This document shows, piece by piece, positions 40,111-43,321 of a stretch of DNA of 45,467 nt (within the stretch, counting starts at the first letter, position 1; every line of letters begins with the position of its first letter). Source of the stretch: a virus. The notes beneath the pieces were generated by a model that saw only the letters and a list, made by a program, of their open reading frames with translations, was not told the origin of the DNA and did no database searches. The DNA is taken from IMG/VR virus record IMGVR_UViG_3300045988_055950; one strand, 5' to 3'. The position numbers and the translations under genes were made by a program.

Positions 40111-41913
40111 ATGTCAGAATTTAGACAGCTTATTATCACAAACAAAGGACAGTCTTTGATGGCAAAACTTATTGCAGGAAAAGCAAATGTGACATTCACA
40201 AAGGTTGCAGCATCTGCCACAACTTACAATGATTCACAGATTCCTGCACTGACTGCACTGTCCAACATCAAACAGCAGGTTGCTGTTTCCAAAGTCACAA
40301 GAATCAATTCTGTTGCAGTTCAGGTTGATGCTGCAATGGAAAACAGTGCATTGACAACTGGATATTATATGAATTCCATTGGTCTTTATGCAAATGACCC
40401 TGATGATGGTGAAATCCTTTATGCAGTTGCAGGTGCAAATGTGGGGGCATATATGCCACCTTATAATGGAATCACTGTCAGTGGTGCATATCTGAAACTT
40501 GTGACCACAGTTTCAAATGCAAGCAATGTTTCCATGACTGTTGACCCTGCTGCTGTTGCAACAGTAGGTGACATTAATGCATTGCAGGCAGAAATCACAG
40601 ACATCCAGTCCTATATTGGTTATACGGATGCAGACATCTATGGTGTTGAAGTTGACTTCAAGAACAAGAAATTCACAAGACTTGCAGGTGCAGTTGGAAA
40701 GACACCTGGTGATGCTTTTAATGGTGTCAAGGCTTTTGGTGGCAGAAGAAGATGTAATGTCACTGATGAAGGAAAGGTTGTTGCATATTTTGGTGATGCA
40801 GGATATTCAGAAACTGGTGTCCTGACTTCTGCAATCACAAAGGGTGAAGGTGATAACATCAGAACATATGCAGCAAAAACAAAGGTGCAGGTCATGGTTG
40901 AACAGCCAAAGTTCTATTACAAGGTTGTTCCACTTGAACTTGAAAAGATTCAGGGTGGCAAAGGCTTCCACATGAGAAAGGCAAGATATTATGTGTCTGA
41001 CACCATGAAAGCAGGTTTCAAACTTCATCCTGCATTCATCAAGGATGGAAAGGAAAAGAACTTTATTTATCTTTCTGCATATGAAGGATGTACTTATGAC
41101 ACATCTGCTTCTGCATACAAACTGAATGATGCACAGGATGTTGACTGGACAGATGATGTTCTTGCATCCATTGCAAATGCAAAACCTACAAGTGGACTGG
41201 CACAGAGCGGTGCAACAAGAAATGGATTCAGAACCATTGCTGCAAAAAGGGGTTTAGGTTGGTCACAGGAAACTGTTCAGGCAGCAACTGCAACAGAACT
41301 TCTTTTTCTTATTGAGTATGCATCTTTTGACATGCAGTCAAAGATTGGTGCAGGTGTAACAACCAAGACTGATGATGGTGCAACATCCATGACAGAAATC
41401 ACTGGTGCAACCACTACACTTGGAAACAAGACGGGTTCTGTTGTCAATACAAATGGTTATTCTGTTGTTGCATATCGTGGTGAAGAAAATCCATTTGGTA
41501 ACATTTGGAAGTGGATTGATGGTATCAATGTTTATAACAAGAATGAAGGTTCTGTTTATATTGCTGACCATGGATTCAAGGATGATACAAATGCAGCACC
41601 ATATTCTGATGCAGGAATCACAATTTGTGGTTCAAATGGTTATGTTTCTGCTTTTGCTTACAATGAAGACTTTGATTGGTTATTCATTGCAAGTGAAGTT
41701 CTTGGAAATAGTTCACTTCCAGTTGGTGACTATTTTTGGCAGAACAAAGCATATAATGGCTACACGGTCGCTCTATTGGGCGGTGATTGGGATATTGGTT
41801 CTAATGCGGGCGGTTTCTATTGGAGTGTGCGTAATGCTTCGGGTAATCGTTATCGTGCTATCGGCGGTCGCCTGCTGTATGTACCTGATGGTACTGATGC
41901 ACCTGCTGCTTAA
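40111..41913 (+). CDS. Tail fibre / receptor-binding protein; DGR target with C-terminal CLec/FGE-like variable domain
   Basis: 600 aa. The N-terminal part is fibre-like. The C-terminus LLGGDWDIGSNAGGFYWSVRNASGNRYRAIGGRLLY is the VR. Confidence 0.85.
   Translation: MSEFRQLIITNKGQSLMAKLIAGKANVTFTKVAASATTYNDSQIPALTALSNIKQQVAVSKVTRINSVAVQVDAAMENSALTTGYYMNSIGLYANDPDDGEILYAVAGANVGAYMPPYNGITVSGAYLKLVTTVSNASNVSMTVDPAAVATVGDINALQAEITDIQSYIGYTDADIYGVEVDFKNKKFTRLAGAVGKTPGDAFNGVKAFGGRRRCNVTDEGKVVAYFGDAGYSETGVLTSAITKGEGDNIRTYAAKTKVQVMVEQPKFYYKVVPLELEKIQGGKGFHMRKARYYVSDTMKAGFKLHPAFIKDGKEKNFIYLSAYEGCTYDTSASAYKLNDAQDVDWTDDVLASIANAKPTSGLAQSGATRNGFRTIAAKRGLGWSQETVQAATATELLFLIEYASFDMQSKIGAGVTTKTDDGATSMTEITGATTTLGNKTGSVVNTNGYSVVAYRGEENPFGNIWKWIDGINVYNKNEGSVYIADHGFKDDTNAAPYSDAGITICGSNGYVSAFAYNEDFDWLFIASEVLGNSSLPVGDYFWQNKAYNGYTVALLGGDWDIGSNAGGFYWSVRNASGNRYRAIGGRLLYVPDGTDAPAA
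41765..41881 (+). repeat. DGR variable region (VR)
   Basis: It aligns gap-free to 42009..42125 (offset +244). There are 25 mismatches, all opposite TR adenines. Confidence 0.9.
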
Positions 41914-42008
41914 TCGAACCAAAAATCATTGAAATATTGGGCAGAAGTAAAGCTGATATATGAAGTTATTTTTCATACAATGAGCCTGAAAACAAAAAAG
42001 CATTAAAC

Positions 42009-42125
42009 CAGTCACTAAATTAGGCAGTAATTGGAATAATGGTTCTAATGCAGGCAGTTTCAATTGGAATGTGAATAATACTTCGAGTAATCGTAATCGT
42101 AATATCAGCGGTCACCTACTAAATG
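42009..42125 (+). repeat. DGR template region (TR)
   Basis: Non-coding copy of the VR. It is AAT-rich; in the VR frame it reads NWNNGSNAGSFNWNVNNTSSNRNRNISGH. It contains 40 adenines, 25 of which are substituted in the VR. Confidence 0.9.
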
Positions 42126-42253
42126 CACAAGGTAAATAAAATCGTTGCTTCTGCCCTGCCACTTGGCAAAATATAAAAATCATTTGAACTGTTTTGGTAA
42201 ATCCTGCAAAGGAAGTTGAAGAATCAGTTTGAAGTGCATACAAAGGAAATGTC

Positions 42254-43321
42254 ATGAAAAGAGTAGGAAACCTTTATTCAAAAATTTGTGACATGGAAAA
42301 CTTGAAACTTGCACATCAGAATGCACGAAAAGGGAAAGGATGGTATCAGGAAGTCAGAATGGTTGATGAAGACCCTGAAAAATATTTGGGGCAACTTCAA
42401 GAAATGTTGTTGAATAAGACTTACAACACATCAGAATATGTGACTTTCATCAAGCACGATTCAGGAAAGGATAGAGAAATCTTCAAACTTCCATATTTTC
42501 CTGACAGGATTTGTCAATGGGCAATCCTGCAAGTGATTGAACCATATTTGGTGAAGAATTTTATCAAGAATACTTATTCAGCAATCCCTGGAAGGGGAAT
42601 TCATCTTGCACTTCATGATATTGACCAGGCTGTTCAGCATGATGTTCCTGGAACACAGTATTGCTTGAAGATTGATGCAAGAAAATATTATCCTTCCATC
42701 AATCACGATATTTTGAAAAAGAAATATAGAAGACTGTTCAAAGATGATGACCTTCTTTGGTTGTTAGATGAAATCATAGATTCCACACCAGGTGACACAG
42801 GGATTCCCATTGGTAACTATTTATCACAGTACAGTGGGAATTTTTATTTGTCATCATTTGACCATTGGATGAAAGAAGTCAAGCATGTGAAATATTATTA
42901 CAGATACATGGATGACATTGTTATTCTTGGGTCTGATAAGAAAGAACTTCATAAACTGCTTCTTGAAATCAAGGAATATTTCAGGAAGGAATTGAAGCTG
43001 ACAGTCAAAGACAACTGGCAGGTGTTTCCAACATTTGTCAGGGGAATTGATTTTGTTGGGTATAGAACATTTTTGAATTATAAACTTTTGAGAAAATCAA
43101 CCTGCAAACAGATGAAACGCAAAATGAACCGACTTCATAAGAAGGTGATTGATAATAACCAACTGATGAATTATTCAGAATGGTGTGCAATCAATTCCTA
43201 TAAAGGATGGTTGATTCATTGTGATTCTTTCAGGTTGTCGAAAAAGTACATTGAACCATTAGAACCTTATGCAAAAGCATATTATGAATATCAAATCAAG
43301 AAAGGTGGAAAAGCAGCATGA
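42254..43321 (+). CDS. DGR-type reverse transcriptase
   Basis: RT motifs LKIDARKYYPSI (A), the DGR-signature PIGNYLSQ (B), YRYMDDIVILG (YMDD, C) and GIDFVGY (E). Confidence 0.95.
   Translation: MKRVGNLYSKICDMENLKLAHQNARKGKGWYQEVRMVDEDPEKYLGQLQEMLLNKTYNTSEYVTFIKHDSGKDREIFKLPYFPDRICQWAILQVIEPYLVKNFIKNTYSAIPGRGIHLALHDIDQAVQHDVPGTQYCLKIDARKYYPSINHDILKKKYRRLFKDDDLLWLLDEIIDSTPGDTGIPIGNYLSQYSGNFYLSSFDHWMKEVKHVKYYYRYMDDIVILGSDKKELHKLLLEIKEYFRKELKLTVKDNWQVFPTFVRGIDFVGYRTFLNYKLLRKSTCKQMKRKMNRLHKKVIDNNQLMNYSEWCAINSYKGWLIHCDSFRLSKKYIEPLEPYAKAYYEYQIKKGGKAA

Follow-up and report, generated by a model that had tools for sequence, protein, structure and literature searches.

The prototype diversity-generating retroelement (DGR) is the one found in Bordetella phage BPP-1, in which mtd, avd, the template repeat (TR) and brt, the gene for a reverse transcriptase (RT), lie in this order. 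DGRs that diversify tail proteins are also well documented in temperate phages of the human gut, namely in the Hankyphage (PMC6199706), in crAss-like phages (PMC7290462) and in Faecalibacterium prophages (PMC11792537). Moreover, 29% of catalogued DGRs have Architecture A, a target-TR-RT order with no accessory gene, and one whole RT lineage is without avd (PMC5758913). Here we describe an element of this kind in IMG/VR virus record IMGVR_UViG_3300045988_055950, a stretch of 45,467 nucleotides (nt) that we refer to in full as the window. We conclude, with a probability of about 0.93, that the RT gene at 42254..43321, the adjacent TR and the variable repeat (VR) of a tail-fiber gene make up a DGR of the target-TR-RT architecture without an accessory gene, and that its carrier is a temperate human-gut phage with a contractile tail. 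The features that define a DGR were found together: an adenine-specific TR/VR pair, a DGR-type RT, a C-terminal target with a predicted C-type-lectin (CLec) fold, a boundary resembling an initiation of mutagenic homing (IMH) site, and diversification at the population level. The element is thus a further example of a well-known textbook system and not a new one, and it leaves current knowledge of DGRs unchanged. Its parts are as follows.

40111..41913, plus strand: the DGR target, a tail fiber of 600 amino acids (aa), recognized by its Phage_tail_fib N-terminus, its match to phrog_5302 and its baseplate neighbors
41011..41910, plus strand: the C-terminal 300-aa ligand-binding module of the fiber, with a predicted C-type-lectin/formylglycine-generating-enzyme (FGE)-like fold (AlphaFold2 and Foldseek), which carries the VR
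41765..41862, plus strand: the diversified part of the VR, codons 552-584, mismatched to the TR at adenines only
41863..41881, plus strand: the IMH-like 3′ end of the VR, GGCGGTCGCCTGCTGTATG, G+C-rich and invariant, with a putative IMH function
42009..42125, plus strand: the TR, non-coding, with 40 adenines and an IMH*-like end at 42107-42125, defined by its alignment with the VR
42152..42243, plus strand: the RNA motif RT-17 (RF03020) in the spacer between TR and RT, identified by the Rfam covariance model
42254..43321, plus strand: the DGR RT, 355 aa, identified by Pfam RVT_1, the PDB match 8ub7_A, phrog_1423 and sequence motifs

Like BPP-1, the window combines a phage tail-fiber target, a C-terminal VR on what is predicted to be a C-type-lectin fold, adenine-only differences between the repeats, and a G+C-rich IMH-like 3′ boundary. 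The two RTs are homologous (E 4.6e-32) and share the IGxxxSQ and YMDD motifs, and both elements have a structured RNA motif in the TR-RT interval (RT-10 in BPP-1, RT-17 in the window). By contrast, the window has neither avd (VR and TR are only 127 nt apart) nor an inverted repeat after the IMH-like site, its variable codons are AAT where those of BPP-1 are AAC, RT identity is low, and its phage has a contractile PBSX-like tail and a host that is probably a member of the Clostridia. DGRs of Architecture A1, including the avd-less “Lineage 3” (Wu et al. 2018, PMC5758913), share the window’s gene order, the lack of an accessory gene, the single adjacent C-terminal CLec-type target and the phage association, a likeness that is one of layout. 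The gut-phage DGRs (Hankyphage, crAss-like phages such as LMMB, and Faecalibacterium prophages) are alike in their gut setting, in the diversification of a tail protein and in RTs that are 40-50% identical to that of the window, and its 300-aa target module recurs in two crAss-like tail proteins, those of cr50_1 and cr56_1. However, they differ in virion type and host lineage.

The closest deposited RT belongs to Psychrobacillus phage Perkons (MT325768; 59% aa identity), which also has the target-TR-RT order, a homologous target module and adenine-only mismatches. Unlike the window phage, Perkons is a 137-kb Antarctic soil phage, and RT-17 falls short of the gathering score there. The record carries no DGR annotation for the Perkons cassette (our locus L019, positions 90877-93399 of the record), in which the VR occupies approximately positions 1980-2115 of L019 and the TR follows 222 nt downstream.

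Against this background, the window adds a clean, well-documented accessory-gene-free DGR on the tail fiber of a prevalent human-gut temperate phage, with more than 100 natural VR variants of the fiber already present in public data. It also brings two small extras. The orphan Rfam motif RT-17 is now tied to a DGR spacer, and the template adenines behave as two classes. This makes the element a handy natural system for mutagenic retrohoming by Avd-less DGRs and for sequence-context effects on adenine mutagenesis.

The VR (41765-41881) and TR (42009-42125) align without gaps over 117 nt at a constant offset of 244. All 25 mismatches lie opposite a TR adenine, so that 25 of the 40 adenines are changed (17 to G, 5 to T and 3 to C), and none of the 77 non-adenine positions differs. 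Were 25 mismatches placed at random, the probability that all would fall on the 40 adenines is 2e-15. Non-adenine mismatches start directly beyond both repeat ends, which sets the boundaries where an earlier note on this DNA, made from the sequence alone, had drawn them. The coordinates, the offset and the 25 adenine-only mismatches without any change at C, G or T that the note had reported were exact on the computed alignment, and its TR and VR peptides were correct. Non-adenine substitutions at a comparable rate, for which it had proposed a pairwise alignment as a check, were absent. The TR has a G+C content of 36% and the VR one of 53%. A scan of both strands of the window with TR adenines as wildcards found no VR-like copy beyond this pair, indicating a single target within the window.

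To find related copies, we searched public collections with the TR in which each A had been replaced by N, a query that retrieves both TRs and VRs. This search yielded 11 loci in IMG/VR and 6 in JGI/ENA metagenomes, several of them on contigs labeled human gut. The TR was identical (117/117) in nine other contigs (L003, L005, L012-L017 and L018), and the VR was different in each. Over 4864 nt (99.2% identity), the contig L003 has 40 differences from the window, 16 of which lie within the 117-nt VR, all at positions of TR adenines, and none in the TR. In L008, VR differences were likewise confined to such positions (14/14). Across the eight tabulated VRs with an identical TR, 26 adenine positions vary and no non-adenine position does, while the ninth identical-TR copy, L018, has one non-adenine change, a T to G at the third base of an AAT codon (matching window position 41793). 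The VR of L005 has an in-frame 6-nt deletion within a AATCGTAATCGT repeat (matching window positions 41843-41848), which is consistent with slippage of the RT.

The same pattern was found in the fiber proteins. A protein search returned 120 proteins 97-99% identical to the fiber, and the 116 that are 600 aa long were analyzed. Their VR peptides are all distinct (116/116), compared to 40 distinct sequences for the remaining 560 residues. The columns with an entropy above 0.5 bit are those of 11 AAT codons, one AAA and one ATC codon, plus residues 213, 366 and 367, which lie outside the VR and are biallelic, with two residue types each. The AAT and AAA codons each show 12-15 residue types and the ATC codon shows 4, and among 1276 residues at AAT codons just one is unreachable from NNT. 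Variation among near-identical phages is therefore limited to codons opposite TR adenines, which answers at the population level the question that the earlier note had wished to settle by read mapping. Because phages that are 98-99% identical differ mainly in the VR, diversification must be recent relative to genome divergence. The activity so demonstrated is that of the lineage and not of this individual genome.

Two of the retrieved loci carry reduced elements, at L007 positions 4498-5100 and L006 positions 2480-2800. L007 retains VR, TR and RT-17, with an RT open reading frame (ORF) shortened to about 27 codons, whereas in L006 the RT, RT-17 and the 3′ half of the TR are gone. Their VRs still show adenine-only differences, save for one non-adenine mismatch in L007, so that they are frozen variants of decaying DGRs.

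The 600-aa and 355-aa ORFs that had been described at 40111-41913 and 42254-43321 are both present, as are the PIGNYLSQ (42806-42829) and YMDD (42905-42916) motifs of the latter. This ORF matched Pfam RVT_1 (E 3.6e-18) and phrog_1423 (E 5.6e-127). Its best PDB match was 8ub7_A (E 4.6e-32, 114.8 bits, residues 2-302 aligned), followed in second rank by a group II intron RT (E 6.4e-14, 55 bits). By tblastn, 8ub7_A proved 100% identical to the brt product of Bordetella phages BPP-1, BMP-1 and BIP-1, and thus the prototype DGR RT is the closest structurally characterized relative of the window RT. An I/LGxxxSQ motif is the signature of DGR RTs, with SP in its place in group II and retron RTs, and the window’s IPIGNYLSQ aligns on IPIGSLTSQ of Brt. 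The top NCBIfam models were those for group II, Drt2, Drt3a and retron RTs, all scoring far under their cut-offs (TIGR04416 at 107 vs. 300, and the retron hidden Markov model at 38 bits vs. 235), and no group II intron RNA or retron msr/msd RNA was matched by Rfam in the window. Among deposited phages, the relatives were all phage RTs of less than 60% identity, with Perkons at the top and many crAss-like, Bacteroides, Faecalibacterium and Bordetella phages among the others. They include CrAssphage LMMB (43% aa identity), for which a DGR has been published (PMC7290462). The comparisons support placing the window RT with DGR RTs and not with those of group II introns or retrons, as the earlier note had proposed from the motifs.

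The target was identified as a tail fiber by its N-terminus and its position. Residues 6-149 match Pfam Phage_tail_fib (PF12571, the tail-collar fiber N-terminal domain; E 3.1e-8), the full length matches phrog_5302, “tail protein” (E 1.4e-163), and the gene lies directly 3′ of Baseplate_J and Mu Gp48-like genes. The VR runs to 32 nt from the fiber stop codon. The surrounding 300-aa module has 2731 representative relatives (E<=1e-3), in which it is mostly C-terminal and joined to varied N-terminal parts. Pfam named no family in this module, either in the window protein or in 22 relatives, and a PDB sequence search of the C-terminus found nothing with a single sequence and, with a profile, only 5vf4 at E 0.14; the fold call hence comes from structure prediction and not from sequence. 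An AlphaFold2 model of the last 300 residues, built with 22 diverse relatives as input, had a mean predicted local distance difference test score (pLDDT) of 88.9 and a predicted template modeling score (pTM) of 0.89. Its first Foldseek match in the PDB was the DGR variable protein TaqVP (5vf4, E 1.3e-9, probability 1.0), followed by five Mtd variants (best 1yu1, E 4e-3) and then, weakly, by PvdO, formylglycine-generating enzymes and TvpA. The high-confidence prediction for the fiber C-terminus is therefore a fold like that of TaqVP and Mtd, both DGR variable proteins, and the CLec/FGE-type scaffold suggested before is backed by structural matches where sequence matches fail.

The last 19 nt of the repeats differ in character from the rest. 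Here, the VR reads GGCGGTCGCCTGCTGTATG and the TR reads AGCGGTCACCTACTAAATG, with five adenines changed (41863, 41870, 41874, 41877 and 41878). The VR form is invariant in all retrieved same-TR DNA copies (the 8 tabulated, L005 and L018) and in the 116 proteins, an invariance that extends to two synonymous CTA>CTG sites, and imperfect similarity between TR and VR persists for ~10 nt past 41881. An IMH/IMH* pair forms the fixed 3′ boundary of mutagenesis in DGRs (PMC5758913), and 41863-41881 and 42107-42125 may well act as such a pair here. The 25 mismatches had been read as a whole as the product of adenine-directed rewriting. All do lie at adenines, but these five are fixed differences of the IMH/IMH* type and do not reflect current diversification. 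The same reservation applies to another 7 of the 25, which fall on internal “isolated” adenines. These number 8 in the TR, almost every copy has G there, and they are considered below.

Between TR and RT, the RT-17 motif reaches 64.6 bits, above its gathering score of 40.4. It occurs at the equivalent place in L002 and in a second family (L001, L004, L009 and L011), whose RT region is ~68% identical to that of the window at the DNA level, and it is also present in L007. The paper that defined the motifs RT-1 to RT-19 placed RT-10 of BPP-1 between TR and brt, with the speculation that further RT motifs serve other DGRs (PMC5737381). By analogy, RT-17 is a candidate equivalent of the BPP-1 spacer (Sp) RNA, with a possible role in priming or scaffolding. 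The minimum free energy fold of the TR-RT spacer was no more stable than that of shuffled sequence (z = 0.70), so the support for RT-17 comes from the Rfam covariance model. Scans for promoters and terminators in the surroundings of the TR did not exceed chance.

Several observations weigh against the DGR reading or against its present activity. Avd is essential in BPP-1, yet no Pfam match to Avd, HRDC or another accessory gene was found among 25 ORFs scanned (21 of them of 65-192 aa), and the 127-nt gap between VR and TR, with 95 nt from the target stop codon to the TR, leaves no room for Avd there. No G+C-rich inverted repeat was detected downstream of the VR in 41860-42020. In addition, 13 TR adenines are never A in the eight tabulated VRs, and one more (41842) is A in 1 of 8; synonymous sites are among them, and fixed A>G changes at such sites are not predicted by a simple model in which every adenine is randomized. 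Decayed relatives with adenine-only VR differences exist (L006 and L007), and it is from its relatives that we infer activity in this very genome.

The missing parts are not disqualifying because it is known that much of the DGR family can dispense with Avd and with the inverted repeat; an inverted repeat follows the IMH in only 34% of DGRs (PMC5758913). The earlier description of a complete DGR therefore stands for an Avd-less target-TR-RT architecture, but not in any wider sense. The decayed relatives, together with the failure to find Avd, would fit an element that is now inactive, with its VR/TR differences and population diversity left as a record of past activity. We consider this improbable, since the RT ORF is intact with its catalytic motifs, the TR is unchanged in all nine other contigs that carry it, and the VR accounts for most of the differences between phages that are 98-99% identical. 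A diverged direct repeat of the ordinary kind, or fiber variation driven by recombination, beside an unrelated group II, retron or defense RT is effectively refuted: the NCBIfam models that ranked first are of those types yet far below cut-off, whereas every mismatch falls on an adenine, independent copies show no non-adenine difference in eight VRs and one in a ninth, BPP-1 Brt is the best structural relative by 18 orders of magnitude in E-value with the SQ motif present, and the window contains RT-17 in place of an intron or msr/msd RNA.

One further ORF lies directly beyond the RT.

43318-43581, plus strand: an acidic 87-aa ORF, phrog_18126 (unknown function), without a Pfam match, overlapping the RT stop codon (ATGA)

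We rejected this ORF as a substitute for Avd, given its acidic nature, its phage family and its retention in RT-less relatives; this persistence makes it more likely to be a gene of the phage than an accessory gene of the DGR.

Returning to the DGR, the TR adenines fall into two groups by their behavior in the VRs. Those before A or T (in AAT and AAA codons and in ATC) vary freely; at codon 584 (ATC), for example, the 116 proteins have I 58, V 44, F 8 and L 6 times, with the A retained about half the time. By contrast, “isolated” adenines before G or C are G in 8/8 same-TR VRs at 41766, 41770, 41778, 41782, 41808, 41812 and 41836, and in 7/8 at 41842. This rule of G before G or C also holds in the second TR family, and in phage Perkons the isolated sites, read by eye from the alignment, comprise 11 G, 2 A and no C or T. 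Selection on the protein could account for several of the fixed sites, which lie in codons for scaffold residues (Gly, Ala or Arg), but not for the synonymous third positions. At Ala566, GCA in the TR is GCG in 16/16 VR copies examined, compared to 53 occurrences of GCA and none of GCG in the rest of the fiber gene, and the VR forms an island of 53% G+C in a gene of 40% G+C.

For Brt in E. coli, the 3′ neighbor of the template adenine matters most, dC is the commonest misincorporation, ~31% of adenines are mutated on average, and an NAC context favors misincorporation of dG, which gives A>C and not A>G (PMC12875486, 2026). We rejected these published context rules as the cause of the fixed A>G changes because neither the ~31% average nor the NAC bias predicts near-complete A>G. 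As a tentative alternative, which we hold to be doubtful, template adenines in this Avd-less, RT-17-associated lineage may comprise two functional classes, randomized before A or T and near-deterministically turned to G before G or C. The fixed class could arise via context-specific dC misincorporation, a homology or repair filter (on cDNA integration or by short-patch T:G repair), or selection at the nucleotide level. If this were true, an A-rich TR would safely encode Gly, Ala and Arg scaffold codons while remaining distinct from the G+C-rich VR.

On the BPP-1 model, the TR and the downstream RT-17 RNA would be transcribed, probably with the late tail operon, and the RT would copy the TR of this RNA intermediate into cDNA, misincorporating opposite template adenines. 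The cDNA would then replace the homologous VR at the 3′ end of the fiber gene, up to the fixed G+C-rich IMH-like boundary. In this way, the 13 codons (11 AAT, one AAA and one ATC) on the predicted C-type-lectin-fold tip would be randomized, with scaffold residues and TR kept constant. The randomized tip would presumably alter receptor specificity and may thereby affect host range.

The surrounding genes bear out the earlier description of a PBSX-like, contractile-tailed temperate phage. An integrase (581-1636, minus strand) and a repressor-like regulator are accompanied by head genes (small terminase, portal, head morphogenesis protein and major head protein) and tail genes (sheath, tube, XkdN-like chaperone, tape measure, LysM protein, YqbQ-like protein and baseplate). 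These are followed by the fiber and the DGR, and then by a holin and an amidase-SPOR endolysin. The tail sheath is 56% identical to that of Clostridioides difficile myophages such as phiCDMH1, phiMMP01 and phiC2, and judged by its genes the phage is fairly described as a temperate PBSX/phiC2-like myovirus of the human gut. With a window G+C content of 39%, the host probably belongs to the Clostridia and has a low G+C content. The phage is common in gut metagenomes, where contigs bearing the prophage are as long as 678 kb; two TR/VR-pattern scans of species-representative genomes gave no match, and a megablast search with the cassette gave no DNA-level match among 50,697 deposited phage records.

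An exact direct repeat of 99 nt stands at the two ends of the window (1-99 and 45369-45467). In L018, an integrated copy on a 59.9-kb gut contig, similarity ends inside this repeat, and unrelated DNA with Mob_Pre and IS110 genes lies beyond. The repeat is either the core of an attachment (att) site or a circular-assembly overlap. Elsewhere in the window, a RAGATH-8 RNA (RF02687) at 3034-3307 on the plus strand scores 292.9 bits against a gathering score of 86.7 and lies directly upstream of an ORF (3312-4652) that matches the phage “PAPS reductase” family phrog_424.

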